Notes: generated by a model from the sequence alone, not told the origin. Shown: positions 596 through 25,232, counted from the first letter of the stretch. The stretch: 32,000 bases of DNA from Prochloron didemni P4-Papua_New_Guinea (GCA_000252485.1 JH610995.1:7369-39368); one strand, 5' to 3'. A program made the numbers and translations.

Positions 596-3517
596 ATGGA
601 CGACTTGTTATTTGGAACAATTGCTAACGATATGCTAGAACCCGGTCCCGGCGTTCTAGCGTTTGGCGGAGCTGGGATGGACTTAATTGATGCTGCGGCA
701 GGGGGAGGCTTAGGTAGTAGACTCTATGGCGGTAGCGGGAATGACGAAATCATCCTGGATATTGACGGTCGTGGCTTCGGTAGCGGTGGAAACGACAAAC
801 TAGAAAGCGCACCGTCAGAAGAAAACGCAGGGGGCAATCGCCTCTATGGCGGAGAGGGAGAAGACACTCTAACTGCAACCTACAATGATCGCCTATTTGG
901 AGGTAGCGGTAACGATATTCTGGATGTTACCGGCGATGGTAGCGAGAATAGATTATATGGTGGGGCTGGTGATGACACTCTAACTGCAGGTACGGGCGAT
1001 CGCCTGGTGGGACAAGATGGTGATGACTTGCTGATTGCTGCTGGGGGCAATAGTACTTTAACTGGCGGTGCGGGAGCGGATATTTTTGCCGCTGCTCCCG
1101 AATTCCCCCATGTTCCCAATATAATAACTGACTTCGAGAGTGGAAGTGACAAAATCCAGCTTGACAGTTTCGTCGTTGAGAACTTGACAGAGCTACTCAA
1201 TCAAGGAACCATTAATCCATTGGAAGAAGGAGATGGCACGGTCATTTCCATCGGCGATACCCAAGTGTTTGTCCTGTTAGGTATTGAAGCTGGTAGTCTG
1301 GTTGAAAATGACTTTATTTTCGCTGGCGGCAACAACACCATTGAAAATGCTACCGACTTGGGTGACTTGACCGATAGAGAAGTCAGCGACAGAGGAACGG
1401 TAAATGATGAGGATAGAATTGATTTCTACCAGTTCCAGGTTGGAGAAGAAAGCGAAGTTACAGTCACTCTAACGGGATTGACTGCTGATGCCAACTTGGC
1501 CCTAATTAACGACCTGAATGAAAATGGACAAGTAGACGATGGAGAAGCAATTGCTTTCTCTGCTTTAGAAGGAACTGCTGACGAAGAAATTTTCACCGTT
1601 CTGCAAGAGGGTAGTTACTTCATCCGGGTGCGACAACAGGATGGGGTTGGATTGACCCCTTACGATTTAACTGTCTCCGCTCAAGGTACGGACAGCACTC
1701 TGGCCACAGCCAATGACTTAGGGGATTTAACCAATAGTACGGTAGTAGAAACTGGCTCCGTGCGAACAGGAGACGGATTAGATTACTACAAGTTCTCTGT
1801 AACTCTAGATAGCACGGTAGAAATTAATCTAAACGGTCTGGAGGGGACTTTAACCCGCTTAGAACTGATTGAAGACATTAATGGAGATGAAGAAGTAGCC
1901 GTAGAAGAACAATTGGCTTCTGTTTTCCTCAATAGTGAAGATCTAGTAGATGGAATTAGCTCATCCATAGCTGTTGGGGAATACTTTGTCCTGGTAGAGC
2001 TAGAGCAAGGGGATACGGACTACCAATTAACTATTGATTCGCAATTCAGGGCAGCGGACAACTCGACCGCCACAGCAGTGGACTTGGGAGACATTACCGA
2101 TTCATCAGCAGCAGATAGCGACCTAGTCTACGATGGAGACCCACGAGACTTCTACCAGTTCCAGATTACAGAAGAAAGCGAAGTAACGGTTAATCTCACA
2201 GGCTTGACTGGAGATGCAAACCTGGCACTGATTAACGACCTCAATGACAATGGAGTATTTGATGCGGTCGAAGCAATTGCTTTCTCGGCTTTAGAAGGCA
2301 CTGCCCATGAGGAGATTTTCCAAGTTCTCGGTGCAGGTAACCACTTTATCCGAGTGCGGCAAGACGATGGTGAAGTTGCTCCAGGACTGGCCCGTTACGA
2401 TTTAAGCGTCGCAGCGGAAGGTACAGACAGCACTCTGGCCACAGCCAATGACTTAGGGAATTTAACCAATAACTCCGCAGTAGAAACAGACTCTCTCAGA
2501 ACAGGAGACGGATTAGATTACTACAAGTTCTCTGTCACTCTAGATAGCACAGTAGAAATTAATCTAAACGGTCTGGAGGGGACTTTAACCCGCTTAGAAC
2601 TGATTGAAGACATTAATGGAGATGGAGAAGTAGCCGTACAAGAACAATTGGCTTCTGTTTTCCTCAATAGTGAAGATCTAGTAGATGGAATTAGCTCATC
2701 CATAGCTGTTGGGGACTACTTTGTCCTGGTAGAGCTAGAGCAAGGGGATACGGACTACGAATTAACTATTGATTCGCAATTCAGGGCAGCGGACAACTCT
2801 CCAGCCACAGCAGTGGACTTGGGAGACATTACCAATTCATCAGCAGCAGATAGCGACCTAGTCTACGATGGAGACCCACGAGACTTCTACCAGTTCCAGA
2901 TTACAGAAGAAAGCGAAGTAACAGTTAATCTGACCGGTTTGACTGGAGATGCGAATCTAGCACTGATTCGGGACGACGACGGGGATGGAGAATTTGATGC
3001 GGTCGAAGCATTTGCTTTCTCCGCTTTAGAAGGTACTGCCCATGAGGAGATTTTCCAAGTTCTAGATGCAGGTAACTACTTTATCCGAGTGCGGCAAGAC
3101 GATGGTGAAGTTGCTCCAGGACTGGCCCGTTACGATTTAAGCGTCGCAGCGGAAGGTACAGACAGCACTCTAGCCACTGCTAATGACCTGGGTATTTTGA
3201 CTGGTTCTTTCGCACCAATCAATGACTCGGTCCGAATTGGAGACGGATTAGATTACTACAAGTTTGAAATAACTGAAAACAGCACGGTAGAAATTAATCT
3301 AAACGGTCTGGACGGGACTTTAACCAGGTTAGAACTGATTGAGGATATTAATGGAGATGGAGAAGTAGCCGTACAAGAAAAATTGGCTTCCGTTTTCCTC
3401 AATAGTGACAATCTAGTAGATGGAATTAGCCAACCCATAGCTGTTGGGGAATACTTTGTCCTGGTAGGGCTAGAGGAAGGGGATACGGACTACCAATTAA
3501 CTATCTCTCGATCCTAA
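596..3517 (+). CDS. Large secreted-type protein: N-terminal RTX (hemolysin-type Ca-binding GGxGxD) repeats plus six PPC (pre-peptidase C-terminal)-like domains
   Basis: 973-aa ORF. Nonapeptide-like motifs LYGGSGNDEI, LYGGEGEDTL, LFGGSGNDIL, LYGGAGDDTL. Then alternating domains with the D-x-DFYQF / DGLDYYKF ... G-YF-RV / YDL pattern of PPC domains. Confidence 0.8.
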   Translation: MDDLLFGTIANDMLEPGPGVLAFGGAGMDLIDAAAGGGLGSRLYGGSGNDEIILDIDGRGFGSGGNDKLESAPSEENAGGNRLYGGEGEDTLTATYNDRLFGGSGNDILDVTGDGSENRLYGGAGDDTLTAGTGDRLVGQDGDDLLIAAGGNSTLTGGAGADIFAAAPEFPHVPNIITDFESGSDKIQLDSFVVENLTELLNQGTINPLEEGDGTVISIGDTQVFVLLGIEAGSLVENDFIFAGGNNTIENATDLGDLTDREVSDRGTVNDEDRIDFYQFQVGEESEVTVTLTGLTADANLALINDLNENGQVDDGEAIAFSALEGTADEEIFTVLQEGSYFIRVRQQDGVGLTPYDLTVSAQGTDSTLATANDLGDLTNSTVVETGSVRTGDGLDYYKFSVTLDSTVEINLNGLEGTLTRLELIEDINGDEEVAVEEQLASVFLNSEDLVDGISSSIAVGEYFVLVELEQGDTDYQLTIDSQFRAADNSTATAVDLGDITDSSAADSDLVYDGDPRDFYQFQITEESEVTVNLTGLTGDANLALINDLNDNGVFDAVEAIAFSALEGTAHEEIFQVLGAGNHFIRVRQDDGEVAPGLARYDLSVAAEGTDSTLATANDLGNLTNNSAVETDSLRTGDGLDYYKFSVTLDSTVEINLNGLEGTLTRLELIEDINGDGEVAVQEQLASVFLNSEDLVDGISSSIAVGDYFVLVELEQGDTDYELTIDSQFRAADNSPATAVDLGDITNSSAADSDLVYDGDPRDFYQFQITEESEVTVNLTGLTGDANLALIRDDDGDGEFDAVEAFAFSALEGTAHEEIFQVLDAGNYFIRVRQDDGEVAPGLARYDLSVAAEGTDSTLATANDLGILTGSFAPINDSVRIGDGLDYYKFEITENSTVEINLNGLDGTLTRLELIEDINGDGEVAVQEKLASVFLNSDNLVDGISQPIAVGEYFVLVGLEEGDTDYQLTISRS
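1331..3514 (+). repeat. Intragenic tandem repeat, about 3 units of ~735 bp (each unit is two PPC-like domains)
   Basis: Antisense shadow ORFs at 1786, 2521 and 3256 are spaced exactly 735 nt apart. Long stretches of units 1-3 are identical at nucleotide level, e.g. gattactacaagttctctgt...gtagaaattaatctaaacggtctgga. Confidence 0.9.
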
Positions 3518-9084: not shown

Positions 9085-9681
9085 TCAAGATATTCCGAAT
9101 GAGAGAATTCCTAAAACTTTGCTTAAATTGTCAAGGGAATATTCTGTTAAATCGATATCTAAATTTCGAGCTTGCAGCCGCAAAAATTTCCAAATATTCC
9201 CTGTTGTGACAGCTCCATAAATAATCGGTATCTCATTGCCTTCTTGTTGATTAAATAAATGTGCTGCTAACATTAGAGATGCACACTGACCCAAACCTAA
9301 ATTAAGATTTTCTTTCTTGGCTTCTACAATAGCAAGAACTGGAGCTTGAATGTAAATTTGTTCGGGAGATAAACTAATCAGGAAATCAAAATTACCATTC
9401 AATCCTTGAGATGAATCCATATTAAATTCGTTGCCAGAAAACAAACTGATTGGTAAATTTGCCCTTCGTTTTATTTCTAGTAAAATAGGAGCAATAATCA
9501 TTCCCGAACGAGATTTTTCTGTATTAATTGCCAGAGCAATAGGAAGATTAAACTCGAGGGTATCTTTGAGAAATTGACTGGGTTCCTGTTCTGCAATATT
9601 ATTAAAAATATTGGGACTCTCATTGATAGAGAGCTGAAATTTTTCCTTGACTGCTTTTAAAGTAAAATCACTATAAGCCAT
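9085..9681 (-). CDS. Hypothetical protein with a PD-(D/E)xK nuclease-like motif
   Basis: FDFLIS...[13 protein letters not shown] fits a D...(D/E)xK core. Member of a family I recognise as common in cyanobacteria but uncharacterised. ATG at 9681 preferred over TTG at 9696. Lies 18 nt downstream of the Uma2 gene on the same strand. Confidence 0.5.
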
Positions 9682-9699
9682 ATCCCGAACCTTCAAAAG

Positions 9700-10275
9700 T
9701 TACCAAATGATTTTTAAATCGAGAACAAAACCTGGAAGGATATTCTCCCCCGATAAACTCTTCGGGTGATTTAAAACTTGCTTTTGTTTCCCAAGACGAT
9801 AAATCTCAACTTGACCTTGTTTGGGATTAATTAACCATCCTAGTTTTACTCCATTTGACCTATATTCTTTCATTTTCTCTTGAGTGTCTTTTAAGCGATC
9901 GCTGGGTGACATGAGTTCCAGGACAAAATCCGGCGCAAGAGGGGGAAATTTAGTTTTTTCTTCTAACGTTAATTTATCCCATCTGGATTGAGCTACCCAG
10001 GAAACATCTGGAGAACGCTCTGCACCATTGGGAAGACGGAAACAAGTTGAAGAATCAAAGCAAACTCCTAGTTTTGTTCGTTCGTTCCAAATACCTATCT
10101 TCAGAGCAAGATTAAAGTTGGTTTTACCTGTTTCTCCCCCTGTTGGCGACAGGATTATTATTTCTCCTTGAGCATTTCGTTCAAATTTAAGATCTGGATT
10201 TTGGCAACAAAATTGGTAAAACTTAGAGAGATCGAGTTGAAATAGTGGCTCTAATTTGAGAGTATAAGCATTCAT
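9700..10275 (-). CDS. Uma2-family (DUF820) putative endonuclease
   Basis: ...ILSPTGGETG...RSPDVSW...PDFVLELMSPSD...EY...GVKLGWLINP is the hallmark pattern of the Uma2/DUF820 restriction-endonuclease-like family. Paralogous to 28264-28839 and 29434-30009. Confidence 0.85.
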   Translation of the reverse strand: MNAYTLKLEPLFQLDLSKFYQFCCQNPDLKFERNAQGEIIILSPTGGETGKTNFNLALKIGIWNERTKLGVCFDSSTCFRLPNGAERSPDVSWVAQSRWDKLTLEEKTKFPPLAPDFVLELMSPSDRLKDTQEKMKEYRSNGVKLGWLINPKQGQVEIYRLGKQKQVLNHPKSLSGENILPGFVLDLKIIW

Positions 10276-10331: not shown

Positions 10332-10367
10332 CTTCTCTCTGCGCCCTCTGCGCCTCTGCGGTTCATT
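10332..10367 (+). repeat. 36-bp dispersed repeat CTTCTCTCTGCGCCCTCTGCGCCTCTGCGGTTCATT (left copy)
   Basis: Identical over exactly 36 nt to 13389-13424, same orientation. The flanking bases differ on both sides. Confidence 0.95.
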
Positions 10368-10384: not shown

Positions 10385-10550
10385 TCAGGCAACATCAATT
10401 TCTCCAGTACGTCTTTTAACAAGCTCGGTAAACGGCGCATAATCTTGCCTTTTTCCGTGCCAAACTACACCAGCATAGTCGGTATGATGGGGTTGGACTT
10501 TGATTGGGTATTCAAACCAATTGGTTATTTGTTTCTTGTTCAAGAGACAT
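10385..10550 (-). pseudogene. Truncated, possibly frameshifted remnant of a 4HBT/YbgC-type acyl-CoA thioesterase gene
   Basis: The minus strand reads ATG-SLEQETNNQLV-stop. The +1 frame continues NWFEYPIKVQPHHTDYAGVVWHG, a typical hotdog-thioesterase N-terminus, then loses similarity and stops at 10385 next to the 36-bp repeat. Only ~50 codons remain where ~140 are expected. Confidence 0.4.
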
Positions 10551-10611: not shown

Positions 10612-12675
10612 CTAGACTGCCCCTGATATAGGCGGACATAGTGCTTTCCCAATTAGATAAACCATTTCATCCAAATCTTCAGTTGTGAATAAACGCTGAT
10701 TTTCTACTTCTGTCAATCCATTGTTAATGCCTTTAAAACCAGTATTCTGAAAAGTTGCTACCAATAAATCGTAATCAATTTCTTCATGAGGAGCACCCGA
10801 ATTAGCTTTTTGGTTGTAGAAATTAAGCATATCTTCGTAATCTTGACTGCTGGAAATTTGATAATCCTGTGTCAGGCTCTCAGGATTATTGCCCATAATA
10901 GCTTCACCAACTGCTCTAGCACAGCCACCAAATGCACCTAGAACAAACAAAGGCTTGTGGTGGTCGATTGCCAGTGCCGCTTCTTCAGCAATTCCAGGGA
11001 ATGCCCCCTTGTAGTCTGTAACCTTCCCACCAAGGATAATCCGAGCATCGATTCCCCTTGCCATTTTCTTTCGCATAGCAGTCAGACAACGGGCCCAAAC
11101 ATAACGATGCTCCCTGTTATTAGGCTCTAGATAAGTCTTTTTGTCAAGGCTAAAAGGCCGGTCCTGAAGGTCTTTAGGTAGAGAAATCGCCCAAATTGAA
11201 ACTTCATTTTTATGGCTAGCCCGCCACTTAACGGTTGCCTTAAGATGCAAAGGCCAGGCTAAGAAATTCTGTATCTTTTCTCCTCGTTCCGTGGTGTCCT
11301 CATTGTAAGCCTTGACCATTTCCACCAAATCTCGTGTAAAACCACCAGGACGTAGATCGCCGCCATAAGCAACACTAGCTCCTTGAGCCAGAAGATGGCG
11401 ACTAATTTCAATGAGTGCCCTTTGTTGATGAACAGCACTAAAGCCAAGTCGCTGTAAATCGGGACTATCAGAAATGGAAATCCCGATCACTTTATCAGAG
11501 AGTGGTTTTTGCTCTCGTTTTCCTGTCACTTGGGGCATAGGCTGGAAAGGAGTCCAAGCTTTAATTCCTGGATCCAGAGAGCTGAGTACCTCCATCTCGT
11601 CATCTCCTAAAGGGGGATCTGGATAGATTAAGAGAGTACATGGTTGTGGTTTGTCCCCTTGCCAAGATTGGACTTGATTTAATAATTCAGGAGCGAAAGG
11701 GATAACCCTGGCTTGCTCTGGGATTCTTCCAATCTTTTTTAAGGTTTCTACATAGCCAGGGAAGTAGCGATACCGCAGCACCTCAAGCAAAATCCTGGCA
11801 ATAATAGTGGGAATCGTCTCAGTCCCTCGCCAGCGCAATGTTGGCGTGTTGCCCAAATAGGGAAAGCTACGTTCCTCACCTCTGTTGAGGGCATTGATTA
11901 GCAGTATAGGAACTCCATATTTCTTAGCGGTTAAGATTTCCCAACGGCAAAAATAGCGGGTGGCATAGGCATCTGTCTGGCAGATTAACAGAGCAGAATC
12001 CTGAAGACCAGCTTTTATTTCCTCTCTAAAATCATAACCAGGTGCTATGTCCTTCGTATCAAAAAAGTTATCGAGTGTATTATCTTCGAGAAGCCATTCA
12101 CGAATTCCCTCAGCAAGTTGAAGCCCGTCTTGTTTGGCATGACTGAGGAAAAGTTGAACGGGAGGGGGTGCTTTTCCCTCCTCTACCTGCCCTTTTGATG
12201 TAATTTGTTGCAGTTGTCGGCAGCAGGAGTGTAGTACCTTTCTCAATAGAGTGTCCCGCTTGTTATCTATTTGGTAGATTCTGATAAAGTTAGTCTGGGC
12301 AATTTTATCACTCAAGTTATAGGCTGATTCAGTCAGTGCCACAGGGTAAAGGCGATGGTGGGGGGCTAACCGGGAGGCAGCATCCCAAAGGGATTCAATA
12401 TACTGCTCCCAACTGTCACTCATCACCATGTGGTCATCTATCAGGACAAACGTGGCGGAGTTGAGAGAGTCCTTCAAAATAATAGGTTTAGGACTGTTGG
12501 TTTCTGGTTGAAAGGGTGCTGAACGAAAATGAATCGGAATCCCAAGACCTCGCAACAGAGGATGTTCTGGATCTGCACAGATATGCTGAAAGAGGTACTT
12601 AGACAAAGGTTCTCCCGTAGGAGACTGGGGGTGCCAAATGAGGTAAATTCTAAAGTAGGGATGATATTGAGTCAT
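10612..12675 (-). CDS. Multidomain TIR + SLOG-like protein (N-terminal unassigned alpha/beta domain, canonical TIR, C-terminal SLOG/LOG-like Rossmannoid sensor domain)
   Basis: TIR: VQLFLSHAKQDG...FFDTKDIAPGYDFREEI...ALLICQTDAYATRYFCRWEILTAKKYGVPILLI, with Glu at codon 11938-11940. SLOG-like: KVIGISISDSPDLQRLGF...ASVAYGGDLRPGGFT...ARIILGGKV...LFVLGAFGGCARAVGEAI. ATG at 12675 preferred over TTG at 12699. Confidence 0.7.
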   Translation of the reverse strand: MTQYHPYFRIYLIWHPQSPTGEPLSKYLFQHICADPEHPLLRGLGIPIHFRSAPFQPETNSPKPIILKDSLNSATFVLIDDHMVMSDSWEQYIESLWDAASRLAPHHRLYPVALTESAYNLSDKIAQTNFIRIYQIDNKRDTLLRKVLHSCCRQLQQITSKGQVEEGKAPPPVQLFLSHAKQDGLQLAEGIREWLLEDNTLDNFFDTKDIAPGYDFREEIKAGLQDSALLICQTDAYATRYFCRWEILTAKKYGVPILLINALNRGEERSFPYLGNTPTLRWRGTETIPTIIARILLEVLRYRYFPGYVETLKKIGRIPEQARVIPFAPELLNQVQSWQGDKPQPCTLLIYPDPPLGDDEMEVLSSLDPGIKAWTPFQPMPQVTGKREQKPLSDKVIGISISDSPDLQRLGFSAVHQQRALIEISRHLLAQGASVAYGGDLRPGGFTRDLVEMVKAYNEDTTERGEKIQNFLAWPLHLKATVKWRASHKNEVSIWAISLPKDLQDRPFSLDKKTYLEPNNREHRYVWARCLTAMRKKMARGIDARIILGGKVTDYKGAFPGIAEEAALAIDHHKPLFVLGAFGGCARAVGEAIMGNNPESLTQDYQISSSQDYEDMLNFYNQKANSGAPHEEIDYDLLVATFQNTGFKGINNGLTEVENQRLFTTEDLDEMVYLIGKALCPPISGAV

Positions 12676-12783
12676 TAAGGGGCTAAGTTGGAGCAGCAAT
12701 AAAACTCTTTTATCATATTAACTCTCAATGGCCGAAATTTGTGCTAGTATTAAACCAAGTAACAGTTAATTTAACAATATTTT

Positions 12784-13281
12784 ATGGCAAGAAAGGTATT
12801 CGTCAGTTACTCACACAGATTAGAACAGCCAGAAGCAGATGACTTTCAAAAAATATTTGCTGATGAACGTGATGTTTTTATTGATAAGTCAATCCGAGAA
12901 GATATCGGTGACAAGAAAGCGTCAACTATAAAAGCAAAATTAAGCTCACTTATCAAGGATAGCTCTGTAACAGTGGTGCTTATCGGGAAAGAAACAGGTG
13001 GCAGAAGTTGGGTTGATTGGGAAATTTACCATAGTCTTAGAAAATCCGATGGAAACGCGAGAAACGGACTATTAGGGGTGAAAATTCCCAATAAAACTCA
13101 TTGGATTCCAGATAGGTTATTGGATAACATTCCTAATATGGGTTTAATTATTGACTGGCCGAGGGATTATAGAACTTTAGCAAATGCTATTGAGGAAGCA
13201 TACAATGCTGCAAAAACTGGTGTTCCAGATCTAAGTAAACCACTAAGAAAAAGAAATTCCTCTAAACAAAAGTTAACATAA
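12784..13281 (+). CDS. ThsB-like TIR-like domain protein (DUF1863 type)
   Basis: MARKVFVSYSH...SVTVVLIGKETGGRSWVDWEIYHSL...GLLGVKIP...IDWP matches my recollection of the ThsB/DUF1863 family consensus, including the W-x-W-E-I glutamate (codon 13021-13023). Confidence 0.7.
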   Translation: MARKVFVSYSHRLEQPEADDFQKIFADERDVFIDKSIREDIGDKKASTIKAKLSSLIKDSSVTVVLIGKETGGRSWVDWEIYHSLRKSDGNARNGLLGVKIPNKTHWIPDRLLDNIPNMGLIIDWPRDYRTLANAIEEAYNAAKTGVPDLSKPLRKRNSSKQKLT

Positions 13282-13388: not shown

Positions 13389-13424
13389 CTTCTCTCTGCG
13401 CCCTCTGCGCCTCTGCGGTTCATT
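13389..13424 (+). repeat. 36-bp dispersed repeat (right copy)
   Basis: Identical to 10332-10367. Confidence 0.95.
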
Positions 13425-23151: not shown

Positions 23152-24330
23152 TTGATTAACAAAACATTGGTGGATTTATTTGCTGGATCTGGAGGGTTAT
23201 CTTGTGGCTTAAAAATGGCAGGATTTCAACCTATTTTAGCTAACGAACTGGTTCCAGCTTATGGGAAAACCTATGAGTATAATCATTCTAATACCGATTT
23301 GATTATTGGTGACCTTCGTGAAGTTGGTGCAACTAATTTGAGGAAAAGATTAGGTGTTATGAAGGGAGAGGTGGATTTATTGGCTGGGGGTCCACCGTGC
23401 CAAGGTTTTTCCATTAATGCTCCCATTCGCTCCTTAGATGATAAGCGCAATTATTTATTTAAAGAATATATCAGAATAGGGAAGGAATTATTGCCGAAAG
23501 CAATTCTCATTGAGAATGTTCCTGGGATTATTTCTTTGGGTCAAGGTACTGTAGTAAAACAAATATATCAAGAAATTGAACAATTAGGTTATTCCATCCA
23601 ACATAAAATCCTCTTTTCCGGGCATTATGGAGTGCCGCAAATGCGTTTTAGGACTATATTTATAGCTTTAAAAGGGGAAGACAAGGTAATTGAATTTCCC
23701 CAGCCTGATTATAATGCTAAGGCTATTGCTAATTTTACCGGAGCCAAGGAACTTTGTTTAAAGATTTTGCCATCTTGCGAGGAGAAACTTAAACCTCAAA
23801 CTTCAGTTTGGGATGCTATTTCCGATTTGCCAGCAATAGAGTCTGGGTCGAAGAATGACAAAATAAAATATGCTTATTCCCAACCTCAGAGTGAATACCA
23901 AGCAATGTTGAGAAATGGTAGGGACTATGTCTACAATCATAGTTGTAATAAGCTGGGGAAAATTAATCTCGAGCGTCTAAAACATATTCCCCAAGGTGGT
24001 AGTTGGCGAGATATTCCTTTTGAGTTGCTACCTGCAGGATTAAAGCGAGCTAAAAGGAGCGACCACACGAAAAGATATGGAAGACTTCATCCCGATGGAC
24101 TTTGTTCCACAATTCTTACAAAGTGCGATCCTCATTGGGGTAGTTTTTTTCATCCCACCCAAGATAGAGTTATTTCCGTAAGGGAAGCAGCTCGGATTCA
24201 GTCATTCCCAGATGATTATTATTTTACTGGTTCTCTTACTCAGCAATACGAACAAGTAGGGAATGCCGTTCCACCTTTAATGGCTCGGGAAATTGGGAAA
24301 ACAATAATTAGTCTCTTGGAGCAGGTATGA
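23152..24330 (+). CDS. DNA (cytosine-5)-methyltransferase (type II R-M modification subunit)
   Basis: All canonical m5C motifs are present: I DLFAGSGG, IV GGPPCQGFS, VI ENVPG, VIII QMRFRTIFI, IX REAARIQSFPDDY, X GNAVPPLMA. TTG start at 23152 with GGGAGGA 8-9 nt upstream. Confidence 0.93.
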   Translation: MINKTLVDLFAGSGGLSCGLKMAGFQPILANELVPAYGKTYEYNHSNTDLIIGDLREVGATNLRKRLGVMKGEVDLLAGGPPCQGFSINAPIRSLDDKRNYLFKEYIRIGKELLPKAILIENVPGIISLGQGTVVKQIYQEIEQLGYSIQHKILFSGHYGVPQMRFRTIFIALKGEDKVIEFPQPDYNAKAIANFTGAKELCLKILPSCEEKLKPQTSVWDAISDLPAIESGSKNDKIKYAYSQPQSEYQAMLRNGRDYVYNHSCNKLGKINLERLKHIPQGGSWRDIPFELLPAGLKRAKRSDHTKRYGRLHPDGLCSTILTKCDPHWGSFFHPTQDRVISVREAARIQSFPDDYYFTGSLTQQYEQVGNAVPPLMAREIGKTIISLLEQV

Positions 24331-25232
24331 GGAAGAAAAAAGATTTGGTTGAAGTATTTGGCTATGCTCCTGATGACTTATCAAAAGAGGCTAGGTCGTT
24401 GTGGAATATAGGTGGTTGTCCGTTTGTAAATAAGGCTTGTATTAAAATAAACCATGATAGAACTATTACTTACGGCACTTGTTCCGTAACATCCCCTTAT
24501 GGAGATATAATAATTTGCCCGAACCGTTTATATGAAAATGATTACAGCACCATTAACCGTGTCGCTAAAGATGCTTTTGGCAATATTCCATTTTTATTGT
24601 TCGATGAATATATTAAGAAGCGAGGAAATATTGAAGAATGTGTTGTAGCTTTGGGTAAAAACTCTGGTAAAGAAGTGCAGCTGGGTCGTCATTTATCTAT
24701 GGATTGGGTATTGGCTCGAATTGTTGATACAGAACTAATTGAATATGTGGGAATTGAAATTCAAAGTATCGATATTACTGGCAATTATCGGGATGCTTGG
24801 CATGGATATAATAATTTGCCTAATACTAAGGTTTTAGCATGGTCAATTCCATCTTCTAATCATGGTTTGAACTGGGCTAATGTTCATAAGCGTCTTATTC
24901 CTCAACTAATACGAAAGGGTATAATTTATTCGCGGTCCAAGCTGGTGAAAAAAGGATTGTATTTTATTCTTCCTGAAATTGTTTTTAATAAATTTGAAGA
25001 AGTTCTGGGAAAGGATATTCCCACAGCGAATAATGCTAATCACGAAACTTTGACAGTTTTAACCTATAAATTGGGGGATAATGTACCATCGGGACAACAG
25101 CGTAAACTTGTAGCAGTTCGTAAATTGCGTTTTACTCTGGAAGAGTTTTCTAATCGTTTCATATCTGGTCCAAATCTTCCCAGTGGAGAAGAGCTGGATG
25201 AAGCGGTTAAAAGAGTAATTGGGGCTGTATAA
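24327..25232 (+). CDS. Putative type II restriction endonuclease, NotI-like family
   Basis: ATGA overlap with the methyltransferase stop. N-terminal Cys cluster GGCPF..KAC...GTCSV...ICPNR and the core VGIEIQSIDITGNY resemble, from memory, NotI (CPF...C.K...C.V...CPNR; LEIQTMDFHGSY). The family call is unverified. Confidence 0.6.
   Translation: MRKKKDLVEVFGYAPDDLSKEARSLWNIGGCPFVNKACIKINHDRTITYGTCSVTSPYGDIIICPNRLYENDYSTINRVAKDAFGNIPFLLFDEYIKKRGNIEECVVALGKNSGKEVQLGRHLSMDWVLARIVDTELIEYVGIEIQSIDITGNYRDAWHGYNNLPNTKVLAWSIPSSNHGLNWANVHKRLIPQLIRKGIIYSRSKLVKKGLYFILPEIVFNKFEEVLGKDIPTANNANHETLTVLTYKLGDNVPSGQQRKLVAVRKLRFTLEEFSNRFISGPNLPSGEELDEAVKRVIGAV

Follow-up and report, generated by a model that had tools for sequence, protein, structure and literature searches.

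The DNA analyzed here is a stretch of 32,000 nucleotides from Prochloron didemni P4-Papua_New_Guinea (GCA_000252485.1, JH610995.1:7369-39368; hereafter the window). It contains a divergent pair of genes, one of which encodes a 687-residue protein combining a TIR domain with a C-terminal SLOG domain, and the other a 165-residue ThsB-type TIR protein. An earlier note, made from the sequence alone, had described the pair as a candidate Thoeris-like defence system in which the SLOG-bearing effector is coupled to a TIR domain instead of SIR2, and had proposed searches with profile hidden Markov models (HMMs), structure modelling and a comparison of gene neighbourhoods as checks. In this study, these three checks were performed, and the domain calls, the model with its fold matches and the adjacency of the two genes in homologous loci all uphold this arrangement. 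A scan of open reading frames (ORFs) together with an alignment of homologues placed both genes and the 108 bp spacer where the note had put them (Table 1). The large ORF in full covers 10612-12699 on the minus strand and opens at a TTG codon; the ATG at 12675 is favoured as the start of the gene by an alignment with 25 homologues, which gives the length of 687 residues. The codon of the catalytic glutamate in the central TIR domain had been located correctly, whereas its number, E254, follows the 695-residue ORF and becomes E246 when counted from the ATG.

Table 1. Positions in the window of the divergent gene pair, the domains of the large protein, the spacer and the flanking repeats.
Feature	Position	Strand	Basis
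Gene for the 687-residue pseudoTIR-TIR-SLOG protein (ThsJ-like predicted effector)	10612..12675, including stop	-	ORF, Pfam, homologues, model
N-terminal degenerate TIR-like (flavodoxin-like) domain, residues 1-165	12181..12675	-	Fold search; without conserved catalytic Glu
Catalytic-type TIR domain, residues 170-262; Glu246 at codon 11938-11940	11890..12168	-	TIR_2, invariant residues, profile and fold matches
Conserved linker, residues 263-391; long helix 288-314; low-confidence hinge at about 381-390	11503..11889	-	Model secondary structure, pLDDT
SLOG cluster2 domain and C-terminal helices, residues 392-687; predicted ligand sensor	10612..11502	-	LD_cluster2
Gene for the 165-residue TIR protein of ThsB type (predicted to sense infection and to make the signal); Glu80 at codon 13021-13023	12784..13281	+	ThsB_TIR
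Spacer, 108 bp separating the two diverging start codons; presumed to hold a shared promoter	12676..12783	.	ORF coordinates
Perfect 36-nt direct repeat (CTTCTCTCTGCGCCCTCTGCGCCTCTGCGGTTCATT) flanking the gene pair, left copy	10332..10367	+	Repeat search
Perfect 36-nt direct repeat (CTTCTCTCTGCGCCCTCTGCGCCTCTGCGGTTCATT), right copy	13389..13424	+	Repeat search

On the basis of the domain, fold and conservation results, the order of parts in the large protein is pseudoTIR, TIR, helical linker and SLOG. In the profile searches TIR_2, LD_cluster2 and, for the small protein, ThsB_TIR all scored above their Pfam cutoffs. TIR_2 matched residues 176-252 of the large protein (E 8.6e-10, 39.6 bits, cutoff 28) and LD_cluster2 (SLOG cluster2, PF18163) matched residues 392-662 (E 2.4e-105, 352.3 bits, cutoff 25.3), in an alignment that extends from position 2 to position 264 of the 264-position profile. 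The C-terminal SLOG domain proposed in the note is supported by this match, although its span is about 295 residues and not about 200. An AlphaFold model made from the family alignment reached a predicted local distance difference test score (pLDDT) of 86 and a predicted template modelling score (pTM) of 0.88. Foldseek searches of this model against the PDB matched the TIR domain to SARM1, TIR-STING, SPARTA TIR-APAZ and RPP1, and the C-terminal part to the ADP-ribose (ADPR)-binding region of TRPM2 and to ThsA (6lhx), while a profile search of the PDB with the central TIR matched the TIRs of TcpB, PdTIR, AbTir, Cat1 and Roq1. No solved structure related by sequence to the SLOG part was found. 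The LD_cluster2 family PF18163 is said to originate from a 2015 survey of SLOG proteins (Burroughs et al.), reportedly a computational catalogue that held neither experiments nor an assignment to a Thoeris type; the 687-residue protein belongs to PF18163 with a high score over the full length of the profile.

Residues 1-165 had been left unassigned in the note, and no Pfam match was found for them; by model and fold search they form a separate TIR-like domain. Modelled alone, this region reached a pLDDT of 90, and its best fold matches were the TIRs of AbTir, SPARTA TIR-APAZ, PdTIR and MAL (TM 0.46-0.58), with probabilities of 0.93-1.00 for the first three; WrbA flavodoxins ranked after the TIRs. 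The resemblance appears in the fold search only: an alignment with the family's own TIR by hhalign gave no signal, and the region was rejected as a sequence-detectable TIR. No conserved Glu follows the invariant W89 of this region, the residue there being variable in an alignment of 26 sequences. As modelled, residues 1-165 are a degenerate TIR-like domain, without the combination that marks a catalytic TIR, namely a TIR fold and a helix C beginning with a conserved Glu.

Conservation in the large protein was assessed in these 26 sequences, which share 37-75% identity. The central TIR has the TIR fold, and its helix C begins with the conserved Glu; E246 is invariant together with F176, S178, D206, G213 and C243. 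The view that the centre of the protein is a canonical TIR with its catalytic Glu retained is thereby confirmed, and a role of this domain as an effector that degrades nicotinamide adenine dinucleotide (NAD+), that is as an NADase, can be inferred. The linker has the invariant residues E267, R269, F271, P272, Y273, N276, P278, Y351 and P354. In the SLOG domain, invariant positions are found at S400, S402, Y437-G438-G439, R535, R545, G549-G550, P560-G561, E564-E565 and G583-G584; these sequence motifs fit a predicted, conserved ligand pocket.

The small gene belongs to the ThsB/DUF1863 family, as the note had recognized. ThsB_TIR (PF08937) matched the 165-residue protein at E 8.7e-20 (71.4 bits, cutoff 21.2), and several PADLOC models of ThsB matched it as well, down to 1e-15. 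Its E80 lies at the codon given in the note and is kept in at least 90% of 74 TIR neighbours from the homologous loci described below. The conserved Glu of the motif was read correctly in the note but the spelling was not, since the sequence is W-x-x-W-E-I instead of W-x-W-E-I. The nearest reference to this protein is the type IX ThsB of P. macerans (34% identity, E 3e-10). This likeness alone does not assign a type, because ThsB families are common to several Thoeris types; ThsB was likewise rejected as a marker of Thoeris type, plasmid relatives of the VD021-type or type III-type ThsB adjoining Macro or SIR2 effectors. At the spacer, one sigma-70-like match was found on the minus strand at 12806-12779, and the count of such matches does not exceed that expected from shuffled sequence.

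The linkage of the two genes was examined in relatives. The proteins of the window share 92-93% identity with those of Prochloron and Paraprochloron genomes, with common synteny, and the divergent pair is retained in Prochloron, Paraprochloron and Microcystis. Full-length homologues of the large protein occur in Cyanobacteria, Bacillota, Pseudomonadota, Acidobacteria and many metagenomes; the family comprises 889 representative clusters at E<=1e-30, and relatives already carry the label 'SLOG cluster2/TIR domain' at the Joint Genome Institute (JGI). For the counts, 80 metagenome loci and the genome loci were gathered, flanking ORFs were called, and TIR neighbours were identified by iterated HMMs. 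Reduction at 85% identity left 58 clusters, and the 38 with at least 1 kb on each flank formed the counting set. A separate TIR gene lies within 1 kb in 31 of these 38 non-redundant clusters (82%), and the pairing of TIR-SLOG genes with a separate TIR gene is not due to chance. Within 3 kb, the number of TIR genes is zero in seven clusters, one in nine, two in ten, three in six and four in six. Among the 74 TIR neighbours, Pfam support comes from TIR_2 for 50, from ThsB_TIR for 48 and from TIR for 24, and some long ones also bear STAND/WD40 or FGE-sulfatase domains. Of the 38 clusters, 14 have a TIR that is related to the small one of the window, and in Bacillus and in soil relatives the large gene stands in operons with several TIR genes.

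No alternative partner common to the seven clusters without a TIR neighbour was found. A family without a significant Pfam match recurs beside TIR-SLOG genes in five loci (L005 8120-8593, L017 2001-2930, L067 511-1131, L095 4285-4917 and L096 6991-9546), which include the neighbours of an otherwise 'orphan' Methylomonas gene and of a patatin-fused version. In a soil clade (L027, L037, L038, L039, L040 and related loci), the TIR-SLOG gene is accompanied by two to four small TIR genes, and MazG_C, UDG-superfamily and Nmad2 genes recur, which suggests larger nucleotide-centred islands; none of these three kinds of gene was found in the window.

Several relatives of the large gene are split or fused. 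In Microcystis sp. T1-4, an in-frame stop falls in the hinge before the SLOG domain (L003 3140-3400) and an ATG follows seven codons later; the 398-residue pseudoTIR-TIR product of this gene is on record (P0027, 16 member sequences). The orthologue is thereby divided, with pseudoTIR-TIR and SLOG on separate proteins, as in the ThcB4 and ThcA proteins of type III Thoeris, and the stop could be either a functional split of that kind or an inherited nonsense mutation. In another relative (L004), a frame change disrupts the large gene. The pseudoTIR-TIR-SLOG module also forms the C-terminus of longer proteins (P0404, P0412, P0417, P0430, P0438, P0451 and P0492), to which patatin phospholipase, trypsin-like protease, calcineurin-like phosphoesterase (metallophosphoesterase) and nSTAND1 NTPase domains have been added at the N-terminus. 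One of them, P0412, holds a TIR, an nSTAND1 (STAND NTPase) domain and the pseudoTIR-TIR-SLOG module within a single polypeptide; it reads as a producer joined to its receiver and supports functional coupling of the two.

To the knowledge of the earlier note's author, the systems characterized so far included no pairing of a TIR-SLOG fusion with a ThsB-like gene. This statement is now outdated. A survey of TIR signalling named seven new types of Thoeris, among which type IX consists of ThsB and a 'TIR and SLOG' effector, ThsJ (Yirmiya et al., December 2025, bioRxiv 10.64898/2025.12.03.692087, Table S2). The type IX system of Bacillus cereus VD021 protects B. subtilis from phage SP82G, and its ThsB makes 3' cyclic ADPR (3'cADPR) on infection (Yirmiya et al., 2025). 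No further paper on type IX was found in the literature examined. The VD021 and P. macerans effector loci were located through their ThsB sequences, that of VD021 being identical (100%) to P0143. The VD021 ThsJ has 623 residues, with TIR_2 at residues 147-235, LD_cluster3 (4e-19) and LD_cluster2 (4e-14); it also matches the type III models ThcA (9e-24, 84 bits) and ThcB4 (3.5e-19, residues 37-285), and because both match, it looks like a fusion of two type III parts. The effector of P. macerans is another member of this 623-residue family (44% identity to ThsJ) and has TIR_2 and LD_cluster2/3; both proteins bear LD_cluster3 and ThcA signatures, which are missing from the 687-residue protein.

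Between the 687-residue protein and ThsJ, BLASTP gave short alignments only, over 58 residues of the SLOG domain (E 4e-8) and 87 residues of the TIR domain (E 0.004). With hhalign, the two families are collinear over 485 columns (probability 99.3%, E 4e-20, 19% identity). On these comparisons orthology was rejected, since both type IX effectors belong to the different, 623-residue family; the 687-residue protein shares its architecture with ThsJ but is only remotely homologous to it, and its own, separate family is catalogued by Pfam and JGI as 'SLOG cluster2/TIR'. As in type IX, a separate ThsB TIR gene adjoins the effector gene, Pfam, the model and the fold search place TIR and SLOG in one effector protein, the order within it is an N-terminal region, a TIR with catalytic Glu, a linker and SLOG, and the nearest reference to the small TIR is a type IX ThsB, that of P. 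macerans. However, the window's effector is a textbook LD_cluster2 protein (352 bits) without a match to ThcA, whereas the shorter ThsJ has its highest scores with LD_cluster3 and with the ThcA and ThcB4 models of type III. In addition, the VD021 ThsB is a 258-residue canonical-TIR protein and not of the DUF1863/ThsB_TIR type, and the genes are co-directional in type IX but divergent in the window.

Other known systems share parts of this design. In type I Thoeris, which consists of the SIR2-SLOG protein ThsA and of ThsB, the partner is likewise a ThsB_TIR-type protein with a conserved catalytic Glu (E80 in the window), and the effector likewise ends in a SLOG sensor, with a fold similar to that of 6lhx. 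The window's effector differs in having a TIR and a pseudo-TIR where ThsA has SIR2; neither a SIR2 match nor a PADLOC match to ThsA was found in the 687-residue protein, and its SLOG domain is cluster2 and not STALD, which scored 14.7 bits against a cutoff of 24. A nucleotide-sensor domain is also fused to a TIR in TIR-SAVED of CBASS (a defence against phage that signals by cyclic oligonucleotides), in the CARF-TIR protein Cat1, in TIR-STING and in SARM1, in all of which TIR activity depends on ligand-driven assembly; three of these are among the profile or fold matches of the central TIR reported above. Unlike in these proteins, the sensor in the window is SLOG and not SAVED, CARF, STING or ARM, and the presumed signal comes from another TIR and not from a CD-NTase or Cas10.

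Taken together, the domain identities, the fold, the conservation of residues, the linkage to TIR genes across phyla and the remote homology to the validated ThsJ suggest that the pair is a two-gene Thoeris-type TIR-signalling anti-phage module of type IX-like architecture, in a minimal and divergent cyanobacterial form; we put the probability of this reading at roughly 0.6. The module would share the logic of type I, namely a signal, its binding by SLOG, oligomerization and the loss of NAD+. By analogy with the ThsB of types I and IX, the 165-residue protein would sense infection and convert NAD+ into a signal of the cyclic-ADPR type. The signal would then bind the SLOG cluster2 pocket of the 687-residue protein, as suggested by ThsA and by the invariant Gly-rich, Arg and Glu-Glu motifs. 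As in the TIR NADases SARM1, SPARTA, TIR-SAVED and Cat1, the ligand would drive oligomerization, in which the central TIRs may form composite active sites around Glu246 and the catalytically dead N-terminal TIR-like domain would probably aid their assembly. The assembled TIRs would finally destroy NAD+, and the infected cell would be arrested. Beyond the domain assignments, each of these steps is modelled on type I and type IX Thoeris and on other ligand-gated TIR NADases.

Several observations weigh against this proposal. The published experiments on type IX concern the 623-residue family only, to which the window's family has 19% identity, and one of the two systems published, that of P. macerans 8244, gave no defence in B. 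subtilis (Yirmiya et al., 2025). Furthermore, 3'cADPR supplied in the medium was not toxic to type IX cells, and the authors leave the trigger open (Yirmiya et al., 2025); because of this result, a simple chain from signal through SLOG to NADase is unproven even in type IX. The internal TIR need not be the part that kills, because the module is also fused to patatin, trypsin-like protease and metallophosphoesterases. Seven of the 38 clusters have no TIR neighbour, and the window is no defence island, the neighbours of the pair being genes for a transketolase, FabF, an M48 peptidase, a Uma2 protein and a PD-DExK protein.

Some of these points lend themselves to a different, if unlikely, role for the large protein, as a ligand-gated switch or amplifier and not a simple NADase killer, which would leave the general kind of system unchanged. 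Once SLOG is occupied, its own TIR might make more of the signal, a second signal or a toxic nucleotide in a feed-forward manner; in another version, SLOG itself might act enzymatically on the ThsB product, as a LOG N-glycosidase does. Such a role would accommodate a type IX ThsB that makes 3'cADPR although 3'cADPR triggers no toxicity. The invariant P560-G561...E564-E565 presumably recalls the catalytic motif PGGxGTxxE of LOG, which we count in favour of this alternative; for none of the Thoeris systems, however, do we know of evidence that shows catalysis by SLOG directly. A self-contained producer and sensor would explain the seven clusters with a stand-alone TIR-SLOG gene and no common partner; these orphan genes may nevertheless have partners elsewhere in their genomes. 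The nucleotide-processing genes beside the soil loci (MazG_C, Nmad2 and one of the UDG superfamily) point in the same direction, as do the fusions to independent effector-type enzymes, although defence systems often contain proteins with more than one effector domain and the fusions are compatible with an NADase role. In structure, the TIR is closest to those of SARM1, SPARTA and RPP1, which are NAD+-consuming effector TIRs and favour that role.

A related and rather doubtful extension is that the family of pseudoTIR-TIR-SLOG(cluster2) proteins of about 690 residues constitutes an unnamed Thoeris type of its own, with an effector tuned to a TIR-made signal other than 3'cADPR, or with an internal TIR whose task is to amplify or convert the signal and not simply to drain NAD+. 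In that case the dead TIR at the N-terminus would be a docking or templating surface, and the module a portable ligand-gated switch, attached also to patatin, protease, phosphoesterase and STAND domains.

It is improbable that the pair has no anti-phage function in this genome and is instead a relic, a repeat-borne cassette or part of NAD+/ADPR signalling in stress, dormancy or symbiosis. The genomic context could be taken in this sense, with housekeeping genes around the pair, no recognized defence genes adjoining it, and a large gene that is interrupted in relatives by the frame change of L004 and the in-frame stop of Microcystis. A repeat family also flanks the pair. The 19-nt core of its 36-nt repeat has two matches in the window against none expected, and it likewise flanks the pair in the Prochloron and Paraprochloron loci, in several copies of 64-222 nt. 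These longer copies, present in both flanks of the relatives, rule out a simple target-site duplication, and because of them the repeat is considered to be a multiplied intergenic repeat element. Defence genes near homologous loci are only scattered, but some loci do adjoin components of restriction-modification (RM), Lamassu (LmuB), AbiL, Wadjet (JetA) or CBASS (a phospholipase), and a Macro ThsA was also seen. Moreover, in the window both ORFs are intact and all catalytic and pocket residues are conserved, the linkage to TIR genes is kept across phyla, and the architecture is that of type IX, which is protective in experiments.

That the pair belongs to type III Thoeris is very improbable. 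According to the account of van den Berg et al. (2024) given by Yirmiya et al. (2025), type III consists of several TIR proteins and a SLOG effector, and its signalling is unknown; the type thus also combines TIR proteins with a SLOG protein, and the Bacillus and soil relatives in multi-TIR operons recall it. However, judging by citations and the NCBIfam models, the type has several ThcB TIRs (ThcB1-4), whereas the window has one separate TIR gene, a single ThsB gene beside a fused effector, and ThcA is a stand-alone SLOG protein of about 184 residues, of another subfamily. The NCBIfam models of ThcA and ThcB4 rule this membership out, as the 687-residue protein has no match to ThcA (NF058525, cutoff 110 bits) at E<=1 and its weak match to the ThcB4 equivalog (NF058526) covers the TIR core only (39 bits against a cutoff of 220, E 4.4e-10), while the validated ThsJ does match both.

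The surroundings of the pair contain further features. Directly downstream of the TIR-SLOG gene, at 9085-10275 on the minus strand, lie genes for a Uma2-family putative endonuclease (E 9e-48) and for a PD-DExK protein, for which the match is to a 'CAS-associated' model of PADLOC (8.6e-48). Synteny of both genes extends to Prochloron and Paraprochloron, and elsewhere they were not found beside members of the large-protein family. Beside the left repeat copy there is a short ORF, MNKKQITNWFEYPIKVQPHHTDYAGVVWHGKRQDYAPFTELVKRRTGEIDVA, at 10385-10543 on the minus strand, which we take to resemble an N-terminal fragment of an acyl-CoA thioesterase; a related sequence belongs to a duplicated flank element in the locus L002. 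Further away, a C-5 cytosine DNA methylase gene (E 3e-65) and the overlapping 301-residue ORF that follows it, which has no Pfam match, at 23152-25232 on the plus strand, are probably a type II RM pair. At 596-3517 on the plus strand, a 973-residue protein with three pre-peptidase C-terminal (PPC) domains and RTX calcium-binding repeats is probably secreted or exposed at the surface.

The type of system that the earlier note described is real but no longer new, and the pair opens no new category; it represents a second, much larger family of TIR-SLOG effectors of Thoeris. With it, a Prochloron-like cyanobacterial symbiont joins the carriers of TIR-to-TIR signalling immunity, and effectors of the 'TIR and SLOG' class extend far beyond the pair of Bacillales proteins that have been tested, the separate family alone comprising at least 889 diverse clusters. 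As 3'cADPR is made in type IX but is insufficient as a trigger, the compact pair from the second family would be a useful comparison for studies of ligand and activation: its domains are clearly mapped, it sets a dead TIR next to a live one, and variants split or fused by nature exist.

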